64,000 nucleotides of DNA from an uncultured Chloroflexia bacterium (GCA_963828165.1 CAWHDR010000001.1:1536001-1600000), one strand, 5' to 3'; shown: positions 5,166-35,447, counted from the first letter of the stretch. Program-made: numbers and translations. Notes: a model not told the origin generated them from the letters alone.

Positions 5166-5184
5166 CGTGGCCTCCTGGCGTGAT

Positions 5185-6792: not shown

Positions 6793-6870
6793 GCGCGGAT
6801 GATAGGTCGGGCCTGCACCGGGGATGGCGTCCTCGAGCGTGCCGGTCATCAGTTGTACGCCAGTACGTGA

Positions 6871-7020
6871 TGTGCGCGTGGTGCACGTATCGGCGAACAA
6901 GTCCATGCGAAACGGCGTTCGATGCCCGATTGTGCGTGGGATGCACCATCCGGCGACTGAGACAGCCGGATCGAGGCCGCATATGGCCCTCGATCGTCGA
7001 TGGGTCCGTGGGGCGCACGT
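6871..7020. repeat. Three degenerate copies of an 18-bp quasi-palindrome (GTGC-N7-GCAC core)
   Basis: tgtgcgcgtggtgcacgt at 6871, tgtgcgtgggatgcacca at 6931, ggtccgtggggcgcacgt at 7003, with hairpins between them. Confidence 0.45.
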
Positions 7021-7088
7021 CCACGGGCCAAGGGGCGCGGGCCGATCGCTGGAATGGTCGTGTGGCGAACCGACCACGTTGTGCCTCG

Positions 7089-7114
7089 GGAACTCGAAGA
7101 CGGCCTGCGCCGTC
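7089..7114 (+). promoter_or_regulatory. Candidate ECF-sigma promoter GGAAC-N17-CGTC
   Basis: GGAAC at 7089-7093, CGTC at 7111-7114, ATG at 7123. Confidence 0.4.
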
Positions 7115-7122
7115 CCCCGGCC

Positions 7123-7590
7123 ATGCCGAAGAACATCCGACTTCTGGTGGTCCTCGCCGTCCTTGCCGCGATCGTGACGGCTTGTCAGTCCATCCCGGCG
7201 GTGGCCTCGCTGGTTCCCGACGCAGGCCCGCTGGTCGCGGTCACCGTTCGCGGCGGCGAATGCCCCGAGGGTGCATGCGGCGCAACGACCGTCATCGAGC
7301 GCAACGGCCGCGTCCACCAGACGGCGCCCGTGGCGGCGGAGCTCGGGGCACTCGCCCCGAACGTCCTCACCGCGCTCGACGCCGCCGTGAAGACGACCGA
7401 CTTCGACGCCCTCCGTGCGCGGAAGTTCACCGGGGAATGCCCCATGGCCTACGACGGCCAGGAGTTCATCTACGAATTCGGGGCGCCCGGCGGCATGGAA
7501 CGGATCGCGACCTGCGAGACCGAGGTGGACCCGAACGACCCGCTGTTCGTAGCGGTGACGGCAGCCCTGGCCGCGGTCGAGCCTCGCTAG
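7123..7590 (+). CDS. Putative lipoprotein
   Basis: Signal peptide ending in lipobox VTAC; four further Cys (ECPEGAC, ECP, TC) could form disulfides. Confidence 0.75.
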
Positions 7591-7610
7591 CTGAGCTGAA
7601 CGGCGCCGGC

Positions 7611-7961
7611 CTACGTCGGCGCCCGATTTCTCGACACCCCGAGCGCCGTGAGAATCACTCCCACGGCCAGCATCGCCCCCGAGGCCGCGAGCCACGGCGT
7701 GATGTCCGGTCCGCTGCACCCAGGACCGCAGCGCGCGTCCGCCGTTCCGATGACGAACAGCCAGCAGGCTCCGAGCCCCGTCAAGACGCCGCCGAGCGCG
7801 AGCGCCCGGCCCGGCCGAACGCTGAGGAGCCCTGCGGCGACCAGGCCCAGGAGCCCCAGCATCGTCCCGCCGACCAGCGTCGCCAACCCGAAGATCAGGC
7901 CGATGACGAGGCCGGTGAACCACCGTCCACGGAATTCCTTCGATTCGCCGGCCCATGTCAT
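7611..7961 (-). CDS. Small hypothetical membrane protein
   Basis: Begins [10 protein letters not shown], is hydrophobic and has a CGPGC loop. ATGA overlap with the upstream gene. Confidence 0.6.
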
Positions 7962-8467
7962 CGCGCGAGCCAATGTGCTCGATGGCCCACCGGTGGAGCG
8001 AGAGCAACAACGATCGTAGCGAGCACCATGCCGATGCCCACGATCTGCCGGGGTCGATCGATCGAGCCGAACGGGTCGCATCCCGATGACGGGAGGAACC
8101 ATGTCGCCGTGCCCAAGATCGAGACGGCGATGCCGCGAAGCAACTCGTTTCCGGACGGCAGCGGCCCACGCCCCAACCCGGTGATCGCGAGGAATCCGGC
8201 AAAGGCGACGACAGGCCAGCCGGTCATGATGGCTGGCAACATGCACAACGCTCCAGCGGCTCCCACGACCGGAACCGACCCGCGCACGGCCCCGACGACC
8301 GCGATCGCGGCCGGCATCAGGAACAGCGGGAAGAGCAGCGTGCTGCGGCCTCGATCATTCGGGTCGATCGGCGCGCTCAGGACAAGAAAGACGGCGTGGC
8401 CCGCTGAGATTGCCGCCAGGAGCAGGATCACGCTTCGAACCGCGCCGACTTGTCGTGCTACTCTCAT
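7958..8467 (-). CDS. Hypothetical membrane protein
   Basis: Several TM segments; translationally coupled to the next gene. Start position uncertain. Confidence 0.55.
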
Positions 8468-14636: not shown

Positions 14637-15386
14637 ATGGCAGACTTGCCCGCCATGACAGCCATCCCTCCAGCCAGGCCCGACATCCGGCGGCCGCTGA
14701 CGTTGCGTCGCGGGCTGCGCCGGTTGAGCACCGGACTCATCGTGTACGGGCTCATCGGGCTGGCGCTGGCGCTCATCGGCGCGTTCGCGTTGGTGTGGGT
14801 CGGGGGGCGCGTCGGCGCGGTGGCCGACCGGACGGGCGAGCAGGTCGAATCGATCGTCGCGACCCTGGACGAGACGGCGAACGTGCTGGAGAGCATGGGA
14901 ACGTCGGCGACGTCATTCTCCGGGACGTTGGAGCGGACACCGCCCGCCGTCCGCCAGACGGCAGCGACAGTCGCGAACCTGCGGGCCAACCTGACCCTGG
15001 TCCAGGGCCAGCTGGCGGCGATCAACATCCTGGGCGCCCGGCCGCTGGCGGATGCCGCGAACCTGTTCGGCCAGATGGCGACCGACCTCGAAGGCCTGGA
15101 CGGCCGGCTCGAGGTGATCGCCGCCGACCTCGATACCAACCGAACGGCGCTGCTCGACAACTCGACGAAGCTGCAGGCGCTGGGGGTGGAGCTGGACGGT
15201 GTCGCGGACGATTTGCGCGCGGGCTCGATCGAGGACAGCCTCGCCGACGTGCAACTCATCCTGGTCGTGCTGTCGGGACTGCTCGTGGTCTGGGCGCTGC
15301 TGCCGGCCGTCGGGGCGCTGGGCCTTGGCTGGTGGCTCCGGCGGGAACTGCTCGACCCCGACGGCGACAGCCTGGTGGCGCCTTAG
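14637..15386 (+). CDS. Membrane protein with coiled-coil region between two TM helices
   Basis: N- and C-terminal TM segments flank a heptad-like helical region. Confidence 0.7.
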   Translation: MADLPAMTAIPPARPDIRRPLTLRRGLRRLSTGLIVYGLIGLALALIGAFALVWVGGRVGAVADRTGEQVESIVATLDETANVLESMGTSATSFSGTLERTPPAVRQTAATVANLRANLTLVQGQLAAINILGARPLADAANLFGQMATDLEGLDGRLEVIAADLDTNRTALLDNSTKLQALGVELDGVADDLRAGSIEDSLADVQLILVVLSGLLVVWALLPAVGALGLGWWLRRELLDPDGDSLVAP

Positions 15387-16826
15387 CGCAACTCGTGGCG
15401 AAGGGCGGACCGGGCGGCGTGGTAGCCACTCATGCCGTGGACGCCACCGCCCGGCGGGGTCGACGACGAGCACAGGTACAGGCCGGGTCCGGCGTGGTAC
15501 GGGTCGAGGCTGGGCACGGGCCGGAAGAAGGTCTGGCGGATGTCCGAGATGCCGGCGTTGATGTCGCCGCCGATGTAGTTCGCATCATGTGCCTCCATCT
15601 GCGCCGGCGAGTGCGTGGCCCGGGCGAGGATCAGGTCGTGGAACCCCGGGGCAAAACGCTCGACCTGGGCCTCGATCCGGCGAGTCATGTCGATGTCGGA
15701 GCCCGGCGGCACGTGGCAGTACGCCCAGGCCGTGGTCTTGCCGGCCGGAGCCCGCGACGGATCCCACGGGTGGTACTGGGCGACCAGCGTGAAGGGCCGC
15801 TCCGCGTGCCGGCCGGCCGCGACCTCGGACTCCGAATGCGCGATCTCGTCAAGCGTGCCGCCCAGGTGGACCGTGCCGGCACGACGAAGGCCGTCGGCGG
15901 TCCACGGGATGGGACCACCGAGGGCCCAGTCGACCTTGAACACGCCCGAGCCGTAGCGGAAGCGTTCGTACCTTGACCGCGTCCGCGGCGGCAGCCGGTC
16001 GCCGGCGATGGCCACGGCGGCTCGCGGCGTCGTGTCGAAGAGCACGGCGCGTGCAGGCGGCAGGTCCTCCAGGCTCGCCACCCGTTCGCCGGTGACGATC
16101 TCGCCGCCGAGGGATCGGAGCTCGGCAGCCAGGGTGTCGGTCACCGCGGCAGACCCGCCGCGGATCATCGGCCACCCGACGGCGTGCGCGTACATCCCCA
16201 GCACGAGTCCGAACGAGGCCGACAACGGTCGGTCGAGCGCGACCATCGAGTGCGCCGCGAGCGCTCCGAACATCGCCCGAGCCGACTCCCCTCGGAACCG
16301 CCCGCGCGCCAGTCCTTCCGCTGAACGCAACGCCGGCAGGCCGAACCGGGCGAGCGCAAGCGGGTGGCGCGGTATGTGCACGACCGGACCGAGCAGTTCC
16401 CTCGACAGCTTCCGCGCATCGCGGACGAGCGGCCCGAACAATCGCAGCCAGGCACCGCCGTCGTCGGTCTTGCGGTCGCGATCCAGGCCCGCCGCGGTGG
16501 CCGTGAACGAGCGCTCGAGCACCGCCGCACGTCCGCCGTCGAGCGCATGGGCGAGTGGCGCGTCGGGATGGATGAGCTCCACGCCGCGAGCATTCCAGTC
16601 GATCGTGCGGAAGAAGGGCGATGCGGCCGTCAGCGGCAGGATCGTGGAGCAGACGTCGTGGCGGAAGCCGGGGAGCGTCAGCTCCTGGGTCCGTGTCCCG
16701 CCGCCGATCGTGTCGGCCGCCTCGTAGACCCGGACGGACCTGACCGGCGCGGGCCAGGGTCAGCGCGGCGGCGAGGCCGTTAGGCCCCGCCCCGACGACG
16801 ATGGCATCGAGATCGGGCGTCGTCAC
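15383..16826 (-). CDS. Phytoene dehydrogenase-related FAD/NAD(P) oxidoreductase; +1 frameshift near 16742
   Basis: Rossmann motif VVGAGPNGLAAA; DPSRAPAGK..WAYCHVP; GLYLCSSSTPPGGGVHGMSGY. Confidence 0.88.
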
Positions 16827-16882
16827 CTGCGCAGCGTAGGCCGTTCGGATGTCGGGCGGCCGGGGCCGTTGCGGCGGTGACG

Positions 16883-17644
16883 TCAGATCCGCCGGCGGAC
16901 GAATCGCCCCGGGGCCCCCGCGGCGTGTATCGCTGCGCGGATCCCGGCGTTGTGGCGGACGTTCCCGACATGGCGCCACTGGCGGCGGCGATCCACGCAC
17001 ACGATCTCAGTCTCTACTTCGACTCCCGTCGCGCCAAGCCGCGCCGCCACGTTTGCCAGCGTGGTTTCCCAGAACCGGTTGTTGACACGATGGCCACCGA
17101 ACACCAGCCCCATCTCGAACAGCGGGTCGCTCGCTCGCTCGAGCGCCTGTGCCTGGATGATGACCGTGCCGCCGGCCGCCCGCGTCGCGCTGAACGTGAT
17201 CCATGCCGCCAACATGTGACCCTCCGGCGACATGAGCGTGAAGGCCTCATCGTCGGCGTACAGCACCAGCACGCCCGTATGGAGCTTGACCGGGCCCGCC
17301 GCCGCCACGGAGAGCAGGGCGACCTCGCCGGGACGGATCCCCGCAAGCGGCGCGTAGAAGGTGTTGCCCTTGGGCCAGAAGCTGGAGAACTCGGTTTTCC
17401 AGGTGGCGATCGCCTCCTCCGGGGTCAGGCTGGTCTCGGCCGGAAGGCGAACGCGGAACGTTTTCTGCCACATCTGCCCGAAGCCTTGGAGAGGCCCCGC
17501 AACGCGTCGCCCAGCCACGGTCGCGGCGACACCTCCGCCGTCCGGGTCGGAGACGGCAAGCCGGTCGACAGGCCGGGCCCAGCTGTCGGCATCGGTTCGC
17601 CGGGGGGTCGACTCGGTCACGGGTTCGCTCGGGCTTGCGCTCAT
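16883..17644 (-). CDS. Hypothetical protein, DUF1990/SRPBCC-like fold suspected
   Basis: FTLMSPEGH..AWITF resembles the DUF1990 TLPGH..GEE.F segment. SD GAGGA upstream. Confidence 0.6.
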   Translation of the reverse strand: MSASPSEPVTESTPRRTDADSWARPVDRLAVSDPDGGGVAATVAGRRVAGPLQGFGQMWQKTFRVRLPAETSLTPEEAIATWKTEFSSFWPKGNTFYAPLAGIRPGEVALLSVAAAGPVKLHTGVLVLYADDEAFTLMSPEGHMLAAWITFSATRAAGGTVIIQAQALERASDPLFEMGLVFGGHRVNNRFWETTLANVAARLGATGVEVETEIVCVDRRRQWRHVGNVRHNAGIRAAIHAAGAPGRFVRRRI

Positions 17645-17671
17645 CGGTCCTCTCGCTTAGCGGATGACCCG

Positions 17672-17705
17672 ATCTTGCGGGGCAACCGTCCGGAGATCGT
17701 TACGA
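17672..17705 (-). promoter_or_regulatory. Activator-type promoter TCGTAACGATCTC-N15-CAAGAT
   Basis: The 13-mer is identical to the one at 22417-22429 and has the same 15-bp spacing to a -10-like hexamer. Confidence 0.65.
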
Positions 17706-17720
17706 GCCGATCCCGGTAGG

Positions 17721-18884
17721 TCACGTGGAACGGCTGCGGACCCAGACTGTGGTCAGCGACGGCCGAACCGCCTGGTCGGCGGCATCGACCAGGGACCTGC
17801 CTACGGCATCCGATTCGACCTCATCACGGAGTCGGCTGCCGAAGGTTTCGACCATCCGCTGATGGTCGTAGCGCGAGCGATAGAACCGTCGGTCGACGAC
17901 CGCCCGTACCGAGCCCCGCACCGGCCCGAATAGTGCGGCGATCGCCAAGGTCGAAAGCGCGACGGGCAGGGTGTCACCACCGGTCAAGGGCACGAGGACC
18001 GCCTGGAGGGCGATGACGAACGAGACATAGAGGACGCCCAGGATGGCGATGACGGCTCCGTAAACGAGCGTGCGCCGGACTACGACGTCGATGTCGTACA
18101 GGCGGTACCGCAAGACGGCGATACCCGCCGCGAGCGGGATGAGAAGGAGAGTGCCGAACACCGCGTAGCCTGCGCTGTCGCCGGCGGTTCCGCGCAGGTC
18201 CATCGCGAGGACGAGCCATGCCCCAGCCTGGAGTGCTGCGGCGAAGGTCATCCACTTGAGTTGCTGACGCTCGATCCCGCGTTCCGCGCGCAATCTCACG
18301 ACCAGGCTCAGGCCGGCAGCAACCGCGCCCGCCAGGAGCGGGAACCAGCCGACGCCACCGCTCTCCAGCGGCGACCCGGTGAATCCAGCGATACCGACCG
18401 GGTTGCGCAGGCGGGGATAGTCCACCAGGGCCGGGGTGAAGGCATTGCCGATCGCGACGAGCAGCGCCCCGCCGATCACCAGAACGGCCGCGATACGCCA
18501 CCGGCGCGATGCCAGCCTGCCGGTCGGGAACAACAGGATCAGCAGGAGCGGGGGAGCGAGCGTGACCGGGAAGCCCCAGGTCGCGACCCATCCGGCCCAG
18601 TCTTGGCCCGCGACCGGCCGCGCGAGGCGGGCGATCGAGTCGAACAGCGCGACGGTCGCTCCGACGACCCCCGTGACCAAGGCAAGGCGGCCGATCACGT
18701 TGCCCGGCTGGCGGCCGACGATCAGTGCACCCACGGCCCCGAACGCCAGGTACGCTGCCGGGAAGAGCACGATGTCGGGCGTCAGCGGTTCCTGGACCCC
18801 GATGGCCCAGAGGACGAGTGCCGCGATCATCGTCACGAGCAGCCCGACGAAGACGATGCCTGCGCGCCAGGGCGTCCGATTCAT
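17721..18884 (-). CDS. Polytopic membrane sensor-like protein with no output domain (paralog 2)
   Basis: About 9-10 TM segments; ERQQLKW, RYRLYDIDVVVRRTLVY and VDRRFYRSRYD; ends in AVRPSLTTVWVR. Confidence 0.8.
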   Translation of the reverse strand: MNRTPWRAGIVFVGLLVTMIAALVLWAIGVQEPLTPDIVLFPAAYLAFGAVGALIVGRQPGNVIGRLALVTGVVGATVALFDSIARLARPVAGQDWAGWVATWGFPVTLAPPLLLILLFPTGRLASRRWRIAAVLVIGGALLVAIGNAFTPALVDYPRLRNPVGIAGFTGSPLESGGVGWFPLLAGAVAAGLSLVVRLRAERGIERQQLKWMTFAAALQAGAWLVLAMDLRGTAGDSAGYAVFGTLLLIPLAAGIAVLRYRLYDIDVVVRRTLVYGAVIAILGVLYVSFVIALQAVLVPLTGGDTLPVALSTLAIAALFGPVRGSVRAVVDRRFYRSRYDHQRMVETFGSRLRDEVESDAVGRSLVDAADQAVRPSLTTVWVRSRST

Positions 18885-20077
18885 CGAGCCGGGCCGCCGC
18901 GGACCCAGACGCCGGCAGACGCGGGCCGCACGGCTTGTGCCGCGACGTCGACAAGACTTCGTCCGACAGCGTCGACCTCGACCTGGTCGCGCAGCTGGCC
19001 GGCGAACCGCTCGAGCGTCTGTCGCGCGTCATAGCGCGAGCGATAGAACCGGCGATCCACCATCCTCTGGACGCGCGCTCTCACGGGACCGAACATCGCC
19101 GCGATCACGAGCGTGGATATCGCCACCGGCAGCGTCTCGCCCCCGATGAAGCCGCTCAGGACCGACTGGAGCGCGAGCACCAGCCCGACGTACACCGCGC
19201 CAAGGATCGCGACGAGTGCGCCGTAGATCAGCGTGCGCCGGATGACGAGGTCGATGTCGAACAGCCGGTGCCGCAGGATCCCGATCCCGACACCGATCGG
19301 GAATCCGCTGAGACCGAGTAACGCCAGCGACCAGGCGGCGGTATCGGAGGTCGCGGCGGCGAGGGCGAGTCCCGCGACGAAGATCGCCGCCGGGTACAGC
19401 AGCCACTTGATCTGCTGGCGCTCAAGGCTCCGGCTCCGCCGGAAGCGCACCACGAGTGAGATGACGGCCGCTGCGGCCATCGCGACGAGGGCAAGGCTTC
19501 CCAGCGGCAGGAACGCAGCAAGGGCGTCGGCGAGCGGCCCGCTAACGCCGAATGGGTTCTGGAAAGCGCCCCCGTAACTTTCGAGGGGGCCCGGCTGGAT
19601 CGCCTGCGCCACGATGAGGACCACCGCGACCCCGATCGCGACCCCGACCACCGGTCGCCAGCGGGGTCCCGGCAGCCGGCCGTCTGGAAAGAGCATCACC
19701 GCAAGCGGGAGGGCGATGCCCACGGCGACGTACCAGCTCCAGCCGCCAGCCCAGGCGACGATTTCTGGACCCGGCAGGCTCGCTCCGGTAAAGGCCACGC
19801 GACCGGCGTACTCGGTGGCGACGATGGCGAGCGAGATGGCGATCCCGACTACCAGGAACAGCCAGCCGACCGGGTTGGCCGGCCGCATCCAGGCGATGGC
19901 GAGCCCGACGCCCGGAAAAGTAATGAAGATCACGGAGATGATCAGGACGTCGATGAAGCTCGGCCGGTCCGGGATCTGCTCGTTGCCGGGCAGCACCAGC
20001 GAGACGAGCCCGGACACATCCATCGCGAGACAAGCGATGAAGAGCAGCAGGGCGAACAGACGCCCGGTCCGTATCAT
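18881..20077 (-). CDS. Polytopic membrane sensor-like protein with no output domain (paralog 1)
   Basis: RPANPVGWL, LFPDGRLPGPRWR, ERQQIKW, RHRLFDID and VDRRFYRSRYD; ends in AVRPASAGVWVR. Overlapping start/stop junctions on both sides. Confidence 0.8.
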   Translation of the reverse strand: MIRTGRLFALLLFIACLAMDVSGLVSLVLPGNEQIPDRPSFIDVLIISVIFITFPGVGLAIAWMRPANPVGWLFLVVGIAISLAIVATEYAGRVAFTGASLPGPEIVAWAGGWSWYVAVGIALPLAVMLFPDGRLPGPRWRPVVGVAIGVAVVLIVAQAIQPGPLESYGGAFQNPFGVSGPLADALAAFLPLGSLALVAMAAAAVISLVVRFRRSRSLERQQIKWLLYPAAIFVAGLALAAATSDTAAWSLALLGLSGFPIGVGIGILRHRLFDIDLVIRRTLIYGALVAILGAVYVGLVLALQSVLSGFIGGETLPVAISTLVIAAMFGPVRARVQRMVDRRFYRSRYDARQTLERFAGQLRDQVEVDAVGRSLVDVAAQAVRPASAGVWVRGGPAR

Positions 20078-20424
20078 CCGAGCCGCAGCGCCTCTTCCTC
20101 GCTGTCGACCACACCGATCGCCTCATCGAGGCGAGTAAGCGACAGGATCTCGCGGTAGTGCTCTGACAGTCCGAAGGCCATCAGCCGCTGGCGCTGACGC
20201 TGGGCCCGGACGAGCAACGTGACGAGCAGGCCGATGCCCGTGCTGTTCATGTACTCGAGCTCGCTGAAGTCGAGGACCACGACCCGTGTCGAGGGGTCGG
20301 CGGCGCGGCCATAGGCATCCATCAATGCGGCGTCCGTCGTTCCGGTCAGCTCGCCTCGGATCGCGATGATCGCAGCGCGCTCGCTGGGTCGACGGACCTC
20401 CAGGACGGTCTCGGTGTCGGGCAT
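20074..20424 (-). CDS. STAS-domain anti-sigma-factor antagonist
   Basis: LDFSELEYMNSTGIGLL carries the phospho-acceptor Ser; SD GGAGG upstream. Confidence 0.9.
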   Translation of the reverse strand: MPDTETVLEVRRPSERAAIIAIRGELTGTTDAALMDAYGRAADPSTRVVVLDFSELEYMNSTGIGLLVTLLVRAQRQRQRLMAFGLSEHYREILSLTRLDEAIGVVDSEEEALRLG

Positions 20425-20455
20425 GGCGGTGCTCCTCCGCTGGGCTGCGTCGTGA

Positions 20456-20791
20456 TCAGACACGGGCCGCGGCCCGGTCGGGATGCAACGTCACGAAATC
20501 GGCGAGCCGGGTGATCTCGAAGATCTCCCGGTAGTGATCGCTGAGCCCGAAGGCGTGCACGTCGCACCGATCGGCGCGGGCGCGAGCGAGGAGCTGGACG
20601 ATGACCGCCAGCCCGGTGCTGTTGATGTACTCGGTGCCACCGAAGTCGAGAACGACCCGATCGACGCCCGAGGCCGCCTGGGCCCACGCCTCGAGCAGGG
20701 CCGTCTCCGCGTCCCCGTCGATCTGTCCGACGAGTTCGATGACGGGTGCGTCGCCCTCGGTCCGGACGCTGGCGTTGAATCGGTCGGTCAC
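20456..20791 (-). CDS. STAS-domain anti-sigma-factor antagonist
   Basis: LDFGGTEYINSTGLAVI and EIFEITRL; GTGA overlap with the phosphatase stop codon. Confidence 0.9.
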   Translation of the reverse strand: MTDRFNASVRTEGDAPVIELVGQIDGDAETALLEAWAQAASGVDRVVLDFGGTEYINSTGLAVIVQLLARARADRCDVHAFGLSDHYREIFEITRLADFVTLHPDRAAARV

Positions 20792-22356
20792 GATGGTGCC
20801 TCCTCGAGGTGGAGTACGAGCTCGGCGGTGTGGTAGCGGCCGTCGGATGTGACGCGGACCGCGTCGACCATCTGCTGGATCAGGAAGATGCCCCACCCCC
20901 GCGGCTTCTGATCGCCGGCCAGCTTGGCCGCGACGTCGGGGGTCTCGACGATCGGGATGGCCTGGTCGCCGCCCTCATCCCGGATGCGGACGACGAGGTC
21001 CCGGCCCTCGACACCGGCCGTCACGCGGACGGGGATCTCGGGCCGGTTATGGTTGCCATGCTCGATCGCATTCATCGTGGCCTCGGCGACCGCGGTCTTG
21101 AGCTTCTCGAGGGTCGGCGTCGCCAGTCCGAGCGGCGCCACGGCCGCCGCCACGCGGTCCATCGCTTCGCGTTCACGGCCGGGCTCGCTTGGCAGCTCGA
21201 ACTCCGTGAGCAGCCCGTCGTCGTGCCAGCCGATGGAGACAAGGGTGATGTCGTCCTCCTGCTCCCAGTCCGGGCCAGTGAACCGTTCCAGCTCAGCGAG
21301 GACCGCCAGGAGCAGGCGGTCGCCGCCATCCGCTCGGGCGATGACGTCGCGAAGTCGGGGGATCCCGAACATCTCGTGGTCGCGCCCGTGGGCCTCGGCG
21401 ATCCCGTCCGACGAGAGGACGAGCTGGTCGCCGCGGGCCAGGCGGGTTTCAGTCTCCGTGTAGCGCATCCCGGGCATCAGTCCGAGCGGCATGCCCGTGG
21501 CCCGCAGCTCCTCCGCGCCCGTCGACGACCGGACGATCGGGAGGTTGTGTCCGGCGTTCGCGAAGCGGATCAGGCCGGTCGCCGGGTCAAGCACGCCATA
21601 GAGGCAGGTGACGAACATCCGCGGGGGCATATCGGCCTGGAGCAGGTCATTGGCGCGCGCCAGGACCTCGCCGGGCGACGCGGCTTCCTGGCCGGCGGCG
21701 CGGAGGAACGATCGTGTGGCCGCCATCACCATCGCCGCGGGAACGCCCTTGTCCGTGACATCCCCAACCGCGAACGCCAGGGTCCCGTCGCTGCGCTCGA
21801 CGAAGTCGTAGAAGTCGCCCCCGACCGCCCTGGCCGGACGGTAGTGGGCCTGGACGCTCCAGCCCGACGGCTGCGGCAGCACCAGCGGGAGGAAGTGCTG
21901 CTGGATCAGCTGGGCGACCTGGAGCTCGTGCTCGAAGCGTTCTCGCTTGACCGCCTCCGCTTCCTGCTCGCTCACGAGCTGGGCGATCCGGAGCGCCGGC
22001 GCAGCCTGCGCGGCCAGGCTCTCGAGCAGCTTCCGATCGTCGGCCGAGTAGTCCTGGTCCGAGAGTCGGGGGCCGAGGTTGAGCGACCCGACCAGCTCGC
22101 CGTGGGTGATGAGCGGGACGACGAGCGAGACGCCCGCCGCGCGCCATGCACGCAACGCCGGGGAGTCAAGTTCGAGGCCGTCGAGGTCGACCGCGCCGTG
22201 CGCCGCCTCGAGGTAGGGGAGCAGCGGGTCGTTCTCGGCGATCGGCAGTGGAGAGGTCGCGTCGGACGGCCGTTCCACCGCGAGATCGGGCGGGACGCTC
22301 GCGGCCACACTGCCGCGCCCGATGGCGCGGCGCAGGGCGCCGCCGATCAGGGTCAT
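20788..22356 (-). CDS. Partial GAF + SpoIIE/RsbU PP2C phosphatase + RsbW-like HATPase_c fusion
   Basis: GAF part LVVPLITHGELVGSLNLG...YSADDRKLLESLA; PP2C motifs GGDFYDF, GDVTDKG, SDG and EDDITL; kinase motifs EATMNAIEHG, IRDEG and RGWGIFLI. Confidence 0.9.
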   Translation of the reverse strand: MTLIGGALRRAIGRGSVAASVPPDLAVERPSDATSPLPIAENDPLLPYLEAAHGAVDLDGLELDSPALRAWRAAGVSLVVPLITHGELVGSLNLGPRLSDQDYSADDRKLLESLAAQAAPALRIAQLVSEQEAEAVKRERFEHELQVAQLIQQHFLPLVLPQPSGWSVQAHYRPARAVGGDFYDFVERSDGTLAFAVGDVTDKGVPAAMVMAATRSFLRAAGQEAASPGEVLARANDLLQADMPPRMFVTCLYGVLDPATGLIRFANAGHNLPIVRSSTGAEELRATGMPLGLMPGMRYTETETRLARGDQLVLSSDGIAEAHGRDHEMFGIPRLRDVIARADGGDRLLLAVLAELERFTGPDWEQEDDITLVSIGWHDDGLLTEFELPSEPGREREAMDRVAAAVAPLGLATPTLEKLKTAVAEATMNAIEHGNHNRPEIPVRVTAGVEGRDLVVRIRDEGGDQAIPIVETPDVAAKLAGDQKPRGWGIFLIQQMVDAVRVTSDGRYHTAELVLHLEEAPS

Positions 22357-22388
22357 GCGTGGCCGTCCGGTGTCGCGATCCGCTTCAT
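22353..22388 (-). CDS. Candidate leaderless 11-aa upstream ORF (MKRIATPDGHA) coupled to the phosphatase start
   Basis: ATG lies 7 nt after GAGGAT, and its TGA overlaps the phosphatase ATG (ATGA). Confidence 0.35.
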   Translation of the reverse strand: MKRIATPDGHA

Positions 22389-22395
22389 CGTGGTC

Positions 22396-22429
22396 ATCCT
22401 CATCGACCATCATTCCGAGATCGTTACGA
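22396..22429 (-). promoter_or_regulatory. Activator-type promoter TCGTAACGATCTC-N15-GAGGAT
   Basis: Identical 13-mer to 17693-17705; heptamer-like repeats CGTAACG/CGGAATG at 11-bp period. Confidence 0.65.
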
Positions 22430-22465
22430 TGCAACCCCGCCCGGCGCGGCACAAGGAGCGACGGT

Positions 22466-24490
22466 CTGACGCTGCGTATCACCCTCCTCGGGCCACCTGA
22501 CGTCCGCATCGACGGCGACCCTCTCCTCGTCGACACGCGAAAGGCGGTGGCGCTGCTCGCCTACGTGGCCATGGTCGGCCGACCGGTCGCCCGCGCGTCC
22601 CTGGTCGACCTGCTCTGGCCGGACGCCGAGCCCGACTCGGGCAGCGGGTCGCTGCGGCGGACCCTCAGCGTCCTGCGATCGGGTCTGGGCGGACGTTGGC
22701 TTGCGGTCGATCGGCGTCAGGTCGCCCTGGCCGGGGAGGAGATCACGCTGGACGTCTCGGTGGCGCGCACCGTGTTCGCGGCTGCGTCGCACGATCACGG
22801 ACCAGGGGAGGCGTGCCCGTCCTGTCGTCGCACGTTGGCGCGCGGGGCGGCCCTCTTCCGCGGCGAGTTCCTCGAAGGGTTCGCCCTGCGCGATAGCGCC
22901 TCCTTCGACGAGTGGCAGACCCTGGAGGCGGAGGCGCTTCGTGGTGAGCACGGGCGAGCGCTCCTGCGTCTCGTCGCACTCGAGGCGGCGGAGGGGAGAT
23001 TCACACACGCCATCGCCACGGGACGGCGGCTCGTGGCGCTCGACCCGCTCGATGAACGAGGGCATCGGGCGTTGATGCGAGTCCACGCGGATGCGGGCGA
23101 TCGGCACGCCGCGGTTCGCGTCTACGACGAGTGCGTCCGGATCCTCGCAACCGAGCTCGGTGTCGCGCCAGACGCCGAGACCACTTCGTTGCACGAGGAC
23201 ATCCGCTCCGGACGTTTCGAAGCGAGGTCCGCGACCGTTCGCCCGACGCCCGCCCCGGCTCCCGCACCCACGTCGGCGTTCGCCGGGCTCGACGCCGTCA
23301 CGAGGGACGTCCTCGCCGCCGCCGCCATCGTCGGGCGGGAGGTAGACCCGGACATCGTGGTTGACGTCGCGGGCCACGGCGAGGCCGACGTGGCAGGCGC
23401 GATCGATCTCCTCGTCGGCGGTGGGATCCTGGCGGAGACCGGCCAGGAGCAGCGCGACTCCTACCGCTTTCGAGACGACCTCATCCGGACCGCAGTCCTG
23501 GAGGAGCTCGGATCGGCCCGGCGACGCGCCCTGCATCGCCGCGCTGCGACCATCCTTGCGACCCGGTTCGATCGTGCCACCGGGGACGGATGGATCGCGG
23601 CGCGCATCGCCGAGCACCTCGCGGCAGGTGCTCGTCCCCTCGAGGCCGCCGCATTCCATCGACGCGCCGCGGAAGCCGCGCGTCGGATCTCCGACCATGG
23701 GCTGGCCGCCGAACAGTTCCGGGCCGCACTCCTGCTGGGCGACCCCGAGCAGGCCGAGCTCTACGCCGCGATCGGCGATGCCGAGACCTTGCTGGGGCGC
23801 TACGGGGAGGCGCTGGCCGCGTACGAGCTCGGGGCCGCGCTCGCCCAGGCGGCTGAGGTCCCTGCCTTCGAGCTCAGGCTCGGCAGCCTGCACCTGCGAC
23901 GCGGTGCCCTTGAGCTCGCGGAACTCCACCTTGCCGCCGCGCTGGTTCGGATCGGCGAAGCGCCGTCCCCCACTCGAGCACGAGTCCTCACCGAATATGG
24001 TCTCGTGGCCGTGCGCCGAGGCGACGAATCGACCGCCCGCGAACTGGCCGACGAAGCGTTGACGATCGCTCGGGCAAGCGCGGACTCGCAGTCGGAGGCA
24101 CACGCGGAGAATCTCCTCGCGATGCTGGCGCGCCGCTCGGGCGATGGCGAGGCGGCCCGCCAGCACCTGCGGCGGAGCCTGGAACGTGCCGGTGTCGCTG
24201 ACGATCCCTCGGCACGCCTCGGGGCGCTCAACAATCTCGCGCTCCTGGAACGGGCGGCCGGGAATCTCGAAACCGCACTCGATCTCACGGACGAAGCGCT
24301 GCGTCGCTGCGTGTTCATCGGGGATCGTCACCGCGAGGCCGCGCTGCGCAACAACCGCGCCGACCTTCTGCACGCCATGGGTCGACCAGCCGAGGCGGCC
24401 GAGGAGCTCGTCCGCTCGGTCACTGCATTCGGGGAGGTCGGCGATCGAGCGGGCCTTCAGCCCGAGATCTGGAAGCTCGTGGACTGGTGA
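22466..24490 (+). CDS. SARP/AfsR-type regulator: winged HTH + BTAD + TPR, with no ATPase domain
   Basis: LRITLLGPP...RKAVALLAY..LVDLLWP, LFRGEFLEGF...FDEW, DPLDERGHRALM and TPR repeats. Probable CTG start 7 nt after AAGGAG. Confidence 0.85.
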   Translation: MTLRITLLGPPDVRIDGDPLLVDTRKAVALLAYVAMVGRPVARASLVDLLWPDAEPDSGSGSLRRTLSVLRSGLGGRWLAVDRRQVALAGEEITLDVSVARTVFAAASHDHGPGEACPSCRRTLARGAALFRGEFLEGFALRDSASFDEWQTLEAEALRGEHGRALLRLVALEAAEGRFTHAIATGRRLVALDPLDERGHRALMRVHADAGDRHAAVRVYDECVRILATELGVAPDAETTSLHEDIRSGRFEARSATVRPTPAPAPAPTSAFAGLDAVTRDVLAAAAIVGREVDPDIVVDVAGHGEADVAGAIDLLVGGGILAETGQEQRDSYRFRDDLIRTAVLEELGSARRRALHRRAATILATRFDRATGDGWIAARIAEHLAAGARPLEAAAFHRRAAEAARRISDHGLAAEQFRAALLLGDPEQAELYAAIGDAETLLGRYGEALAAYELGAALAQAAEVPAFELRLGSLHLRRGALELAELHLAAALVRIGEAPSPTRARVLTEYGLVAVRRGDESTARELADEALTIARASADSQSEAHAENLLAMLARRSGDGEAARQHLRRSLERAGVADDPSARLGALNNLALLERAAGNLETALDLTDEALRRCVFIGDRHREAALRNNRADLLHAMGRPAEAAEELVRSVTAFGEVGDRAGLQPEIWKLVDW

Positions 24491-24515: not shown

Positions 24516-25964
24516 CTAGGCAGGCGCCACGACGAACGGCTGGCCAGCCCGGAATTCCATGTCCGGCGAGGCGCCGATCATGCAGACCGGCCCGTAGGCC
24601 CCGGCCTCGAGCGACACCGAGCTCGTGATGGACCCGCCCGCGCCGGGCTCGTCGGAGGCGCCGCCGGCGTCGATGATCCAGTCGGGCAACACGTCGGTCT
24701 CGACATCGATCGTGGGCAGCAGGGCCGCCACGTCCTCCCACGTGTGCGGCTGGCGCACGCCCACGATCCGAACGGCCGCCGGATCGCCGGTCGTGTTCTC
24801 GAACGTCAATGCGGCCAGGCCGGGTTTCAGGCCGCCGGGCATCTCGAAGGTGCAGGCCGCGCCGTCCCAACGGACCGTGAGCTGACCCGCTAGGTCGAAT
24901 GGGGACACCCGATCTCCACCGACCCCCAGGGCCTCGATGAGGGCCGTCTCGACCGCCTCGCGATCCGCGGCGGTCGCGAACGCCACCGGCCGGCCGGCGT
25001 CCTGCCGGCTGACCCGCCCGGTCTCGTCGACGAGCAGGAGCGCGTCCTCCCAGGTGACGAGGTCGGGTGAGCTCACGGTCAGCGCCGCGAGCTCGTCCCA
25101 GAGTTGCTGGCCTTCGCCGGTCAGGCGGGTCGGGACACGGGCAAGGAGCTCGAAGACGAGGTCGGCGCCGGCCGTCGGCCGGTGCTCGGTCAGGCGTTCG
25201 GGCAGGTCGGGTGGGATCGGCACGTCGGCGGTCGCATCGAGCGGGACCAGCCTGATCGGTGTCGCGGTGTCGAAGATCGCGCTCACCGCCGAAGGGTCGG
25301 CGGCGAGGTTCCATTCGAGGCTGTCGTCGGCCGTGACCCCGTCGACGATGACGTTGCCGGGAACGTCGATCGCGCCACCCATCGCGTGGATCGCCGCGAT
25401 CCGGTCTGCGACCGTCGGGTCGGCGATGACGGCGTCCTCGAGGTTGGTCCAGGGACCCAGGGCCACGACCGTCGGTGAGCTCGGGCTTGCGTCCACGGCG
25501 GCGGTCAAGAGGCTCGCCGCGTCCTCCGCGACGCCTGTGTTCGACGGCGCCGGCATCTCCATCCCCCAACCCTCGTCCGCGTTGAGGCGCCACTCGTCGG
25601 GGAATCGTTGGCCGTCGGGTCCCGGGTCCACCCGACCGCAGGCGAACGGGATCGCGCCGGCCCCGAACTCCTCGAGCACGTACTGCACGATCTGGCGGCC
25701 CGAGGCGCAGTTCGTCACGCCTGTCCCGGTCGGGACGATGGTGATGGCGCGTACGTCGACGCGGGGGTCGCGCAACAGCACGGCCAGCGCCGCCATGTCG
25801 CTGACGTCGACGTCCGTGTCGACGATGATCGGGATGCGTGTCGTGGGTGGATCGCCGGTGACCAGCGGCGGCTCGGTCCCGTCCGTGGCCGCATCGCAGG
25901 CGCCCACGAGCCCGGCCAGGACGACGACGACGACCGCGCCCGCGCGAGCCCGACGGGAAGGCAT
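24516..25964 (-). CDS. Lipoprotein nucleoside hydrolase (IUNH family) with an extra C-terminal domain
   Basis: Lipobox LVGAC; motifs IIVDTDVDVSD, ALGPWTNL, MGG..GN, EWN..ADP, VPLDAT and LWD. Confidence 0.85.
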   Translation of the reverse strand: MPSRRARAGAVVVVVLAGLVGACDAATDGTEPPLVTGDPPTTRIPIIVDTDVDVSDMAALAVLLRDPRVDVRAITIVPTGTGVTNCASGRQIVQYVLEEFGAGAIPFACGRVDPGPDGQRFPDEWRLNADEGWGMEMPAPSNTGVAEDAASLLTAAVDASPSSPTVVALGPWTNLEDAVIADPTVADRIAAIHAMGGAIDVPGNVIVDGVTADDSLEWNLAADPSAVSAIFDTATPIRLVPLDATADVPIPPDLPERLTEHRPTAGADLVFELLARVPTRLTGEGQQLWDELAALTVSSPDLVTWEDALLLVDETGRVSRQDAGRPVAFATAADREAVETALIEALGVGGDRVSPFDLAGQLTVRWDGAACTFEMPGGLKPGLAALTFENTTGDPAAVRIVGVRQPHTWEDVAALLPTIDVETDVLPDWIIDAGGASDEPGAGGSITSSVSLEAGAYGPVCMIGASPDMEFRAGQPFVVAPA

Positions 25965-26157
25965 GCGCTGCATGGTAGGGCCGCGGCGCCCCCATGGACC
26001 GGCGAACGACGTCAGCCCGCCGCCGGACCCCGATCGAACCAGATCCGCTCCCCGGTGAACCGCTTCGTGGCGGGGCGGACCCACAGGCGTTTGATCCGGC
26101 GCAACTCGTCTGGATCGAATCCGCGGGCCAGCATCGACCGGATGCGTGGCCGGTCGG

Positions 26158-27429
26158 TCACCGGGTCGTGGCGGCCATGCGCTCCAGCGCCTCGAGCGCC
26201 CGGTCGACTTCGGCGGCGGTGTTGTAGTGGACCAGCCCGATCCGCAGCACGCCACCGACCTCGGCCTTGCCGAGCCGCTCGATGAGACCGGTCGCGTAGA
26301 AGTCACCGTCCCACACGTAGATGCCCTCCCGTCCGAGCGCTTCCGCGGCCGCCCGCGGGGCGAGGCCCTCGATCGAAACGGACACGGTCGGCACGCGCTC
26401 CGCCGCGCGGGCAGGGTCGGCGATGCCGTGGATGGTCACGCCTGCGATGGCCCCAAGGCCGGCGATCAACTGGCCCACCAGCTCGCGCTCGTACTCGACG
26501 ATGGCGGTCATCCCCGCAACGAGCTCGCGCCGGCGTTCGCTGGCCTCGCCGGCACCCGGCGCCCCGGCCACGTCGCCGTACGAGCGCCCGACGTCACGCA
26601 GGTAGTCGGTCGCAGCCAGCGTTCCGGCGATCGACTCGAAGGCGGCGGTGCCCGTCTCGAATCGATCGTGCGCAGGGCGCACCTTGAATGCTGGCAGCGA
26701 ATCGAGCACCGCAGCCTTGCCGTATAGCGCGCCGAGGTGCGGACCGAACCACTTGTAGGCGCTGCACACCAGGAAGTCGGTGTCGAGCGCGCGGACATCG
26801 ATCGGCCCGTGGGGCGCGTACGCGACGGCATCGATGTAGGTGAGCGCCCCGACCTCGTGCGCACGCGCGACGATCTCGGCGACTGGATTGATCGCCCCGA
26901 CCGCGTTGCTGGCGTAGCCCACCGCGACGAGCTTCGTTCGCGGCGTGAGCTTGGATTCGAGGTCCTCGAGGTCGAGCGTGACATCGTCCTCGCGGATGTC
27001 GACCTTGCGGACCGTCACCCCGCGGTCGGCGGCCATCGCCTCCCAGGTCGAGACGTTCGCCTCGTGGTCCAGGGTGGTGACGACGATCTCGTCGCCGGGC
27101 CCGAGTGTCGCGCCGATCGAACGTCCGACGTGGAGGGTGAGCGTCGACATGTTGTAACCGAACTTGATCTCGTCCGGGCTCGCGGCACCGAGGAAGTCGG
27201 CCACCGCGGCGTGGGCCTCGTCAGCCATGGCGTCGCTCATCTCGCTGGTGGTGAACGCGCCGCCGCTGTTGGCGTTGGTATTCGTGAAGTACGCGCCGAC
27301 GGCGTCGATCACGCGCTGGGGGACCTGGGTGCCACCAGGACCGTCGAGGAACGCGACGGTCTGGCCGTCCTGCTCCCGGGCGAGAGCCGGGAATTCGGTG
27401 CGCAGGGCATCGACTTCGAAGGCGGGCAT
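26158..27429 (-). CDS. PLP-dependent class V aminotransferase, cysteine desulfurase-like (VC1184 subfamily)
   Basis: Motifs FLDGPGGTQVP, LDHEAN, YIDAVAYAPH, CSAYKWFGPH, FETGT and GDFYA. Confidence 0.9.
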   Translation of the reverse strand: MPAFEVDALRTEFPALAREQDGQTVAFLDGPGGTQVPQRVIDAVGAYFTNTNANSGGAFTTSEMSDAMADEAHAAVADFLGAASPDEIKFGYNMSTLTLHVGRSIGATLGPGDEIVVTTLDHEANVSTWEAMAADRGVTVRKVDIREDDVTLDLEDLESKLTPRTKLVAVGYASNAVGAINPVAEIVARAHEVGALTYIDAVAYAPHGPIDVRALDTDFLVCSAYKWFGPHLGALYGKAAVLDSLPAFKVRPAHDRFETGTAAFESIAGTLAATDYLRDVGRSYGDVAGAPGAGEASERRRELVAGMTAIVEYERELVGQLIAGLGAIAGVTIHGIADPARAAERVPTVSVSIEGLAPRAAAEALGREGIYVWDGDFYATGLIERLGKAEVGGVLRIGLVHYNTAAEVDRALEALERMAATTR

Positions 27430-27440
27430 CGAGACTCCGT

Positions 27441-28037
27441 TCAACTCGCGGTTTGGACCGTCGGGTCGCGGGGCAGCAACAGGCCGACCAGTCGATACAG
27501 CCCGTAACCCAGGGCGACGCCGAGGACGTTGATGATGATGTCATCGACATCGGCGACGCGGTACGGCGCGCCGACCAGCACGGACAGGGCAACTTGCACG
27601 GTCTCGAGGGCGAGCGAGATCGCCAGGCCGGCGCCAACGACCGCGGGTAGGGATCGCCAGCGCGGCCAGATGAGCGGCAGGAAGACGCCCAACGGGACGA
27701 AGGCGAGGGCGTTGCCGACCAGGACCCGTCCAGGCGGCCCGTCGAGCCCGAACCGGAGGGAGACGCGGATGGTCTCGAACGGCACGATGTTCGCCCATGG
27801 AAACGGCCACGGCCGGTAATCATCCAGATTCGCCGCTGGTAGCCGCGTCCACGGTGGAAGCGGAAACGGCGTGAACAGCAGCCCGATCAGCACGACGACA
27901 TAGGCCGCAAACGCGAGCCGGATGGACGACGGCCACCGACCGATACGGTCCCGCCCATTTGCCAACGCCACCACCGGCAGGACGATGATCAGTCCGAGCA
28001 GGATGAAGCTGGTCGTGGGGAACGTGTCCGAGCTCAC
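27441..28037 (-). CDS. VanZ family membrane protein
   Basis: Motifs NIVPF, GNALAFVPLG, SLALETVQ, R.ADVDDIIIN.LG. Confidence 0.88.
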   Translation of the reverse strand: MSSDTFPTTSFILLGLIIVLPVVALANGRDRIGRWPSSIRLAFAAYVVVLIGLLFTPFPLPPWTRLPAANLDDYRPWPFPWANIVPFETIRVSLRFGLDGPPGRVLVGNALAFVPLGVFLPLIWPRWRSLPAVVGAGLAISLALETVQVALSVLVGAPYRVADVDDIIINVLGVALGYGLYRLVGLLLPRDPTVQTAS

Positions 28038-34809: not shown

Positions 34810-35447
34810 GCGAGTCCACTGATCCGCTCCGGCTGCGCGTGGCGTCGGTCACCGACGATGCGGATCGCGCTGTCCTGGTTCGAATCGCAAACGGAGAGCT
34901 CGGAGCCCTTGATGACCTGTACGAGCGTTACAAGACGATGGCCTTTTCGATCGCCTACCGCATCACGAACGATCCGACCCTCGCCGAGGATGTCGTCCAG
35001 GAGGCGTTCCTGGGCGCGTGGCGGAATGCCGCCCGCTACATCGAGGGCCGCGGCAGCGTGAAGACCTGGCTGCTGTCGATCGTCCATCACCGTGCGATCG
35101 ACGCCGTGCGACGGCGACGGCCGACGTCCGAGCTTCCCGAACGCGAGGACGTGCCGCCGGCCGCACTGCGGCTCCCGGACGTGTGGGCGGAGGTCTCCTC
35201 GCGTCTGGATGTCGAGATCGTCCGCGAGGCGCTGGCCGTGCTGTCCGATGTCCAGCGCGAGGCCATCGAGCTCGCCTACTTCGGCGGGTTGACCCAGGTC
35301 GAGGTCGCCGAGCGGACCGCAACGCCTCTCGGGACCGTGAAGAGCCGGATGCGTCTCGGACTGCTCGCGATGCGCCAGCGCCTGCTCGCGGCGGAGGGAC
35401 CCACAGCGTCCGGGACCGGGGCCGATTTGGGGGCCGAACCACGATGA
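34806..35447 (+). CDS. ECF RNA polymerase sigma factor (SigK-like)
   Basis: Region 2 AEDVVQEAFL..W...WLLSIVHHRAID and region 4 LAYFGGLTQVEVA...PLGTVKSRMR. Confidence 0.92.

Follow-up and report, generated by a model that had tools for sequence, protein, structure and literature searches.

A partner-switching locus of an uncultured Chloroflexia bacterium with an input GAF fold apparently divided between membrane receptors and a phosphatase-kinase

How would a phosphatase-kinase that carries part of a GAF domain receive signals from membrane proteins that end in the missing part? The question is raised by a locus in a 64,000-nucleotide stretch of DNA, here called the window, from the genome of an uncultured Chloroflexia bacterium (GCA_963828165.1, CAWHDR010000001.1:1536001-1600000). 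In the open reading frame (ORF) map of the window, a minus-strand operon (16883-22356) comprises six genes whose stops and starts overlap or abut. These encode a fusion of a PP2C phosphatase and an RsbW-type kinase (PPK), two STAS proteins, two polytopic membrane receptors (MP1 and MP2) and a DUF1990-like protein. A first-pass annotation, made from the sequence alone, had listed the same minus-strand genes, all of which are present, and had proposed that a receptor-GAF-phosphatase was cut inside its GAF. Profiles, alignments and structure models now place the juxtamembrane helix, helix 1 and strand 1 of the GAF in the receptors and the rest in the phosphatase-kinase, and the fold is very probably split between the receptor genes and the enzyme gene. 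We further hold it moderately probable that this is a partner-switching locus whose input GAF is shared by two polypeptides, the receptor tails completing the enzyme's GAF in trans and feeding several sensors into one phosphatase-kinase.

The division is visible in profile matches. The PPK matches only positions 88-135 of the 136 positions of Pfam GAF_2, i.e. the last third of the profile, and contains no complete one-chain GAF (PF01590/PF13185), which was found in a fused relative (profile positions 5-130 of 133; structural Z score 12.8). Longer relatives of MP1 (317 proteins at E <=1e-5, among 8000 scored candidates) were mostly membrane-GAF-HisKA_3 kinases, bearing out the earlier statement that a GAF usually joins this membrane domain to a kinase, here of the histidine type, or to a phosphatase. 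The protein P0020 (906 aa) has the membrane domain, GAF, SpoIIE and HATPase_c_2 in one chain, and in P0012 (798 aa) the Pfam GAF lies at residues 353-485 and covers profile positions 7-132 of 133. The fused genes of two metagenome loci, L109 and L119, span both halves as well (GAF positions 5-130 and 1-132 of 133). The expectation, set beforehand, that fused homologues would align the two halves contiguously was therefore borne out by P0012, L109 and L119. On the L109 segment, residues 1-64 of the last 70 of MP1 align with residues 1-64 (48% identity, E 5e-20) and PPK residues 36-157 align with residues 93-218 (57% identity, E 1e-39). The two alignments do not overlap and are separated by a 28-residue variable loop, which measures 10-70 residues in other fused proteins; judging from these alignments, the gene cut falls in a variable loop of the GAF.

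An unfiltered search with the PPK N-terminus returned 5537 representatives at E <=0.001. Among the best 150, which were read, ~19 were fused forms, longer proteins in which the match lies past residue 330, four were giant multi-GAF proteins and most others carried the match at their N-terminus. Tandem GAF arrays with 7-18 GAF-remainder matches each were seen in P0376 (3952 aa), P0498 (2783 aa), P0503 (2170 aa) and P0468 (1961 aa). PPK-like proteins gave 1755 database matches, with lengths of 520-560 residues predominating among the best 120.

Structure models located the missing elements. The fused L109 segment was folded with AlphaFold using a 22-row alignment, and PPK residues 1-157 with AlphaFold2 using a 35-row alignment of split forms only. 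The L109 model (mean predicted local distance difference test score (pLDDT) 87.5, predicted template modelling score 0.78) consists of a juxtamembrane helix (residues 2-34), a helix (40-55), a strand (59-64), a low-confidence loop and then the elements common to the PPK, and its helix 40-55 and strand 59-64 connect with the strands further on. Among solved GAF domains its best match reached Z 12.8, 404 of 1000 chains scored Z >=8, and whole stand-alone GAF chains were covered (3eea_B 10-162, 3o5y_A 8-149, 3k2n_A -2 to 174). In the PPK model, residues 1-40 are without structure (pLDDT 45-71) and residues 41-157 (pLDDT >90) form the GAF remainder (H45-51, H66-73, E78-84, E87-93, H105-155). This model has neither GAF helix 1 nor strand 1, and keeps helix 2 and the long C-terminal helix; it has two long strands and a very short third, and in the fused-relative model there is a third long strand, which is strand 1. 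Placed on the same solved chains, it enters 3eea_B at residue 49, 3o5y_A at 41 and 3k2n_A at 27. The best Z of the PPK model alone was 5.9, against 12.8 for the fused L109 segment, with 0 of 778 chains at Z >=8, and Foldseek gave weak GAF rows for it (best E 5.4e-3); modelled alone, the phosphatase N-terminus falls short of a complete GAF. Completion of the GAF in cis by the PPK's own N-terminus was also considered and ruled out, as residues 1-40 have no predicted structure.

The earlier description of the phosphatase as beginning with the remaining GAF elements needs a qualification here: the GAF remainder is indeed N-terminal, but ~40 unstructured residues come first. The PPK most likely starts at the ATG at 22356 (MTLIGGALRR..., 522 aa), because the starts of 12 relatives coincide with the M of a conserved MTELTRPIRRLLGR motif that aligns with MTLIGGALRRAIGR in the window, and with this start ~40 residues without predicted structure therefore lie ahead of the GAF remainder. 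Across the 35 aligned split forms this motif reads MTxLTRPxRRxLGR, and a flexible linker of 25-45 residues follows. The motif may be left over from a fused ancestor, or be a second docking element, or a membrane tether or binding element. A twin-arginine translocation signal was ruled out, there being no hydrophobic stretch after the RR motif. By reading, MTxLTRPxRRxLGR loosely resembles the start of the receptor juxtamembrane helix, FxPhRxRhQR (19052-19093, 17889-17930), a likeness too short for statistics.

Is the split peculiar to this genome? We compared 174 loci (14 from the genus, 80 from genomes and 80 from metagenomes), mapping domains on stop-to-stop ORFs. Genome loci came from a profile scan of species genomes that yielded 545 relatives of the PPK N-terminus, of which the best 80 loci were taken; the metagenome loci were retrieved with the fused P0020 as query. 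The split form was found in 170 of the 174 loci, from many assemblies and with cultured Kribbella strains among them. The PPK had its own ORF in 14/14 genus loci, 80/80 of the best-of-545 genome loci and 76/80 metagenome loci, so that the proposed survey of gene neighbourhoods gave a separate PPK ORF in all 94 genome loci. Long open frames had hinted that the last receptor of the array was fused to the PPK in relatives, an option rejected because the domain maps show separate ORFs in 94/94 genome loci. All 14 genus loci combine the separate PPK ORF with 2-6 complete receptor ORFs, and across the loci these numbered 1-8 where present. At least one receptor was located in 77/80 genome loci, the three without being contigs of 1.8-3.5 kb. 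At least two STAS ORFs were present in 70/80 genome loci, a DUF1990-like gene in 66/80 and a gene for a SARP-family regulator in 45/80; the latter also occurred in 13/14 genus loci. The locus was found in records labelled Actinomycetota and Chloroflexota. Submitter labels of the best 80 included Kribbella (three species and two strains), Nocardioides, Marmoricola, Aeromicrobium, Solirubrobacterales, Thermoleophilaceae, Gaiellales, Nitriliruptoraceae, Limnocylindria, other Chloroflexota and a few others.

Gene fission normally takes place between domains, which makes a conserved cut inside a small signalling fold unusual. An alternative explanation would be that a once-fused gene only seems split through assembly errors or frameshifts, or has decayed into pseudogenes. 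Frameshifts are indeed evident in the assemblies of some relatives (L017, L019, L026, L027), and two ORFs from the database, P0005 and P0010, resemble read-throughs across a frameshift. We nevertheless give this explanation next to no credence, as it is already contradicted by gene order and conservation. The window receptors lie downstream of both STAS genes, where no frameshift could join them to the PPK; the PPK has its own conserved start in the 12 relatives; and the split recurs in all but four loci, those of cultured Kribbella included. The retention of both pieces in 170 of 174 loci, in at least two labelled phyla, implies that they still work together. This is a real, widespread variant of partner switching, not a peculiarity of the source genome.

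The four metagenome genes in which the parts are fused were L109, with the kinase, and L119, L120 and L133, which lack the kinase and have an additional extracytoplasmic part at the N-terminus. The locus DNA examined showed neither STAS nor DUF1990-like genes near these four. In the fused proteins of one clade, those of L119 (gene at 4846-8079) and L120 (2050-4815) and the database protein P0460, the extracytoplasmic segment is ~150 residues long and has, by impression, cupredoxin-like features; these proteins have neither a kinase domain nor STAS neighbours. The enzyme shows a second fission in one metagenomic clade, where the RsbW-type kinase has an ORF of its own downstream of the GAF-remainder/PP2C gene (L124, L125, L128-L130, L132, L134-L142, L144-L146, L149-L153, L161-L163, L165). 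Receptors, where seen in this clade, lie after the DUF1990-like gene.

On the receptor side, the C-terminal ends quoted in the first-pass annotation were confirmed: MP1 stops at ...VWVRGGPAR and MP2 at ...VWVRSRST. The two proteins share 44% identity, rising to 62% in their tails, and neither has a Pfam family; a crude Kyte-Doolittle scan gave ~10 hydrophobic segments for MP2. Positively charged loops and tail suggest, by the positive-inside rule, that the tail is cytoplasmic. The same ending recurs in relatives: 331 of 378 receptor ORFs with a DRRF-type motif, pooled from the genus, genome and metagenome loci, end 0-22 residues past the strand, 34 more have tails of <100 residues that the pattern used did not recognise, and 13 run on further as read-throughs, receptor-receptor fusions or true fusions. 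From these sequences, the recurrence of the truncation points is far beyond chance. Across 122 receptors, the frequency of the top residue per 20-residue block was 0.18-0.51 in the sensor part (MP1 residues 1-260) and 0.53-0.74 over MP1 residues 261-398, so that conservation is highest in the tail region, which takes in the final two membrane helices, the juxtamembrane helix and the stub. A variable sensor with a conserved tail fits variable inputs with a common transmitter, not a decaying remnant.

Stand-alone receptors gave 3617 database matches, of which the best 120 were predominantly 380-430 residues long; those with names were all 'hypothetical' except one 'MFS family permease', and none had a Pfam family. 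The NCBIfam model PrsK (TIGR02916) was used purely as a ruler for the membrane-GAF junction: its positions 213-346 of 679 match MP1 residues 268-394 (23.9 bits against a cut-off of 300), with MP1/MP2 at positions 203-347 and the PPK at 408-475, all far below the cut-off. At 22-24 bits against 300, and with no kinase domain, the membrane proteins were rejected as PrsK, the XrtA/PEP-CTERM histidine kinase. Receptor-receptor tandem fusions, or long frames over two units, were noticed in P0001 (801 aa), where the stub of the first unit is altered, in an ORF of L104 (815 aa) and at 4351-6756 of L016.

If the pieces belong together, they should be found together in genomes. In an evenly sampled set of 301 genomes of the phylum, 20 had a PPK match (cut-off E <=1e-25), one copy each. 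The source genome contains these two receptors only. Receptor matches were present in 17 of the 18 other PPK-bearing genomes tested, 1-16 in each and mostly adjoining the PPK; G170 and G117 carry receptor and PPK parts within a single open frame. Within the genus, the PPK occurred in 16 of 24 other genomes, all 16 with receptors, and receptor matches occurred in 17/24, typically as tandem arrays. G024 was the sole genus genome with a receptor-like match and no PPK, and that match is a distant relative with a different tail. Of 20 PPK-negative genomes searched, 15 gave no receptor match and the other five gave distant relatives (31-34% identical). The P....WLR stub was absent from the tails of L188, L189, L190 and L192 in PPK-negative genomes (the fragmented G005 match, L191, was left out), and L193 has a helical tail end without the stub.

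Several observations weigh against a functional joint and would favour a different account, in which the split is real and the tails serve the receptors themselves (dimerisation, stability or another partner), the partial GAF of the PPK is a dimerising helix-and-hairpin module, and co-regulation or a common pathway is what links the genes. The truncated GAF models confidently alone (pLDDT >90), making a stable partial domain possible. One genome, G186 (91% complete), has a PPK-like match and no receptor match, and in G194 the receptors are dispersed over the 5.1-Mb chromosome. A receptor was present in only 27 of the 76 split-PPK metagenome loci; in 49/76 none was found in the locus DNA, with many contigs short, and five long loci (L113, L138, L146, L167, L177; ~12-13.5 kb), which have the SARP gene directly upstream, contained no receptor by BLAST or motif. 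Receptors are thus either unlinked or absent there, and if absent, the truncated GAF works alone. Co-occurrence is also weaker than it looks, because adjacent genes are gained and lost as a block and the relatives are not independent; given usually adjacent genes and related genomes, it supports linkage more than interaction. Even so, we regard the account without a joint as unlikely. It does not explain why conservation in the receptor peaks in the tail with helix 1 and strand 1, why the cut point is the same in 331/378 ORFs, or why receptors ending in the stub were not found in the 20 PPK-negative genomes. A GAF helix plus one strand would, moreover, have no obvious independent fold, and the strand that the fused-relative model adds to the two long ones of the PPK model is strand 1.

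Completion of the enzyme's GAF by the receptor tails is accordingly the reading we prefer. Beyond the observed gene set, divided fold, conservation and co-occurrence, we infer docking, signal transfer and output as follows. Each receptor would be a variable polytopic sensor with a conserved juxtamembrane helix, GAF helix 1 and strand 1. Its tail would put the helix and strand into the incomplete GAF of the PPK, and the completed fold would bring the enzyme to the membrane. Via the C-terminal helix of the GAF, receptor conformation would then be coupled to the phosphatase-kinase balance, which would set the phosphorylation of the conserved Ser in both STAS proteins. The GAF remainder is nearly invariant and the pairing of receptors with the enzyme is many to one. 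As each genome examined has one PPK and there are up to 16 receptor matches in a genome, the receptors could be alternative or competing inputs to one enzyme. The stronger proposition of a plug and socket, in which up to about a dozen paralogous receptors alternate or compete to complete the GAF of a single phosphatase-kinase and integrate signals by fold complementation, we consider evenly poised.

Docking might also serve sequestration. Receptors would keep the PPK, in an active or inactive state, at the membrane until a stimulus frees it, with the paralogues acting as a buffering pool, much as stressosomes hold RsbT. The excess of receptors over enzyme (1-8 ORFs per locus, up to 16 matches per genome) would suit such a pool, and the flexible 25-45-residue linker and conserved basic motif of the PPK offer a possible tether. 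In the single-chain relatives, however, the GAF is a fixed link between sensor and enzyme, a placement that favours signal passage through the fold, and we give sequestration a small chance.

What would the enzyme act on? In the PPK an N-terminal basic motif, unstructured linker, GAF remainder, PP2C and RsbW-type kinase follow one another, the long last helix of the GAF remainder running into the PP2C, and from these domains it is predicted to be a soluble bifunctional enzyme. GGDFYD, DVTDKG and EDDIT on one side and NAIEHGN, DEGG and GWG on the other are what we take to be the expected PP2C and GHKL motifs. NCBIfam anti-sigma F and RsbW models match the PPK far below their equivalog cut-offs, as do all NCBIfam equivalog scores at the locus, and no REC domain was matched in the PPK by Pfam or NCBIfam. 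The kinase is one of only two strong HATPase_c_2 matches in its own genome. The STAS Ser motif (NS[TSG]G-type) is kept in 140/142 STAS1 and 145/147 STAS2 relatives, 285/289 in total. By sequence, the locus has three components of a partner switch, namely a PP2C phosphatase, a GHKL kinase and STAS proteins with a predicted phosphorylatable Ser. No sigma factor gene was found in the conserved locus of the window or its relatives, upholding the view that none is co-encoded. The genome has 29 Sigma70_r2 matches, the nearest to the operon at 34917-35120 (+) in a 223-residue frame outside the conserved locus. Candidate targets of the STAS proteins or of the kinase are a sigma factor whose gene lies elsewhere, the SARP conserved beside the operon, and the DUF1990-like protein.

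The SARP protein matches Pfam BTAD (E 2.4e-22) and TPR_12 (E 1.6e-16), and the NCBIfam AfsR model covers its residues 43-331 far below cut-off. A BTAD with a putative DNA-binding N-terminus assigns it, on domain content, to the AfsR-type SARP family. Its start is probably the CTG at 22466, with a perfect AAGGAG 7 nt ahead; matches with relatives start at residue 48-51 of the long ORF. The DUF1990-like protein scored 14.8 bits (E 0.032) with Pfam DUF1990 (PF09348), short of the cut-off of 23, and weak DUF1990 matches occur in 11 of its 29 aligned relatives (best E 1.6e-5), so that a distant relationship is possible. A profile search of solved structures gave no relative for it at E up to 1.

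The nearest known designs differ in how the same parts are joined. The RsbU-RsbV-RsbW and SpoIIE-SpoIIAA-SpoIIAB modules share with the window a PP2C, a GHKL kinase and STAS proteins with a conserved Ser, whereas in the window the phosphatase and kinase are fused and the locus has no sigma gene; Rv1364c and OsaC are further fused relatives. With the membrane sensor-GAF-HisKA_3 kinases of Actinomycetota and Chloroflexota the window system has the membrane domain and the linker-GAF junction in common, their output being a two-component kinase in one chain. Closest are uncharacterised single-chain sensor-GAF-SpoIIE/PP2C database proteins, with or without HATPase_c_2 (P0020, P0012, L109), which have the same membrane domain, DRRFxRxxYD helix, GAF and PP2C. 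P0020 and L109 share the kinase too, and identity to the two window halves, as measured on the L109 segment, is 48% and 57%. The single-chain proteins differ in being one polypeptide with a 10-70-residue loop where the window system is cut. In HsbR/HsbA of Pseudomonas aeruginosa and CrsR/CrsA of Shewanella oneidensis, as described in PMC6482189, the PP2C is followed by an RsbW-type kinase/anti-sigma domain in one chain, the input is a receiver domain phosphorylated by a phosphorelay, and the switch controls how far a STAS antagonist is phosphorylated; its target, a sigma factor or another protein, is encoded elsewhere. The PPK has the PP2C-then-kinase order in one chain in common with them, and the window system differs in lacking REC and in having a split GAF with a receptor array, two STAS proteins and SARP and DUF1990-like partners. 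Because HsbR/CrsR-type switches, as presented there, act on factors encoded elsewhere (PMC6482189), an operon without a sigma factor is not unusual. In the full-text literature searched, which did not cover subscription journals, no account of a split GAF domain, of fission within a GAF or of such a layout was found.

A quick unrooted maximum-likelihood tree of the GAF-remainder-to-PP2C region (72 rows: all 15 fused forms and every second of 114 split forms; a careful search is unfinished) placed several fused forms outside a supported, mostly split clade of 63 rows (Shimodaira-Hasegawa-like approximate likelihood-ratio test 95), with two fused clades nested inside it. The fused/split label needs five changes, at least two of them forced by supported branches. 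On this count, more than one fission or re-fusion seems to have taken place at that one loop. Split enzymes seemed to evolve more slowly than fused ones in the tree, an impression set aside because the two kinds of rows were sampled differently. PPK rows labelled Chloroflexota and Actinomycetota are intermixed, and a few PPK records carry unlikely labels (Saccharimonadales, Steroidobacteraceae, Thermoanaerobaculia). The interleaving and the unlikely labels suggest lateral transfer of the locus and/or mis-binned contigs.

If the tails complete the GAF, many membrane sensors could share one output enzyme without phosphorelay proteins, in a wiring principle distinct from phosphotransfer or adaptor domains. 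It would also give a role to two large families, the stand-alone receptors and the 520-560-residue 'SpoIIE family phosphatases'. As a compact natural design for modular sensors, it would be a precedent for engineered split-domain sensors. The proposal is testable at the bench, because cultured Kribbella strains carry the system.

The coordinates of the features are collected in Table 1. Of the interval 16883-24490, which the first-pass annotation had treated as a unit, the six-gene minus-strand operon stands, and 22322-24490 is a separate, divergent plus-strand SARP gene, a conserved partner that the annotation had left unmentioned; the intergenic region between PPK and SARP is ~109 bp (22357-22465).

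Table 1. Genes and domains of the partner-switching locus, in window coordinates
Feature	Position	Strand	Basis or remark
PPK (PP2C/RsbW-kinase fusion)	20788-22356; longest ORF to 22536	-	ORF map, Pfam; 522 aa
PPK N-terminal 40 residues: basic motif (MTLIGGALRRAIGR) and variable Ala/Pro-rich linker	22237-22356	-	pLDDT 45-71
GAF remainder, PPK residues ~41-155	21892-22236	-	GAF_2 profile, AlphaFold2 model, structural match
PP2C (SpoIIE-type) domain	21226-21792	-	Pfam SpoIIE E 3e-50, residues 249-437 of 582-aa ORF
RsbW/SpoIIAB-type GHKL serine kinase	20833-21192	-	Pfam HATPase_c_2 E 3.4e-21, residues 449-568 of 582-aa ORF
STAS1, YINSTGL	20456-20791; max extent to 20896	-	Pfam STAS_2 E 3.9e-12
STAS2, YMNSTGI (Ser kept)	20074-20463, start codon uncertain	-	Pfam STAS E 2.5e-13
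MP1, stand-alone polytopic membrane receptor, 398 aa	18881-20077	-	ORF map
MP1 cytoplasmic tail (predicted), 70 aa, first GAF piece	18884-19093	-	alignment to fused L109 segment
MP2, stand-alone polytopic membrane receptor, 387 aa	17721-18884	-	ORF map
MP2 cytoplasmic tail (predicted), 69 aa: VDRRFYRSRYD juxtamembrane helix, GAF helix 1, strand 1 (TVWVR)	17724-17930	-	
DUF1990-like gene, 253 residues, conserved last gene of locus	16883-17644	-	ORF map
SARP-family regulator (BTAD + TPR), divergent, conserved neighbour	22466-24490; earliest possible start 22322	+	Pfam

The likely start of STAS1, a GTG at 20791, overlaps the PPK stop (GTGA), the MP1 ATG overlaps the STAS2 stop (ATGA), the MP2 ATG overlaps the MP1 stop likewise, and a 76-nt gap separates MP2 from the DUF1990-like gene. 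A consensus scan of 16700-22600 for sigma-70-type promoters and terminators found none. By eye, the flanking minus-strand genes resemble an FAD-dependent oxidoreductase (15383-16582), a secreted nucleoside hydrolase (24516-26306) and a class-V aminotransferase (26158-27444), and they are not conserved with the locus in relatives. The commonest order in the genus is divergent SARP, receptor array, PPK, STAS, STAS and DUF1990-like gene. In the window the receptors follow the second STAS gene, an arrangement partly shared by the closest relative, G023, and also seen in other loci, e.g. L032, L127 and L176.

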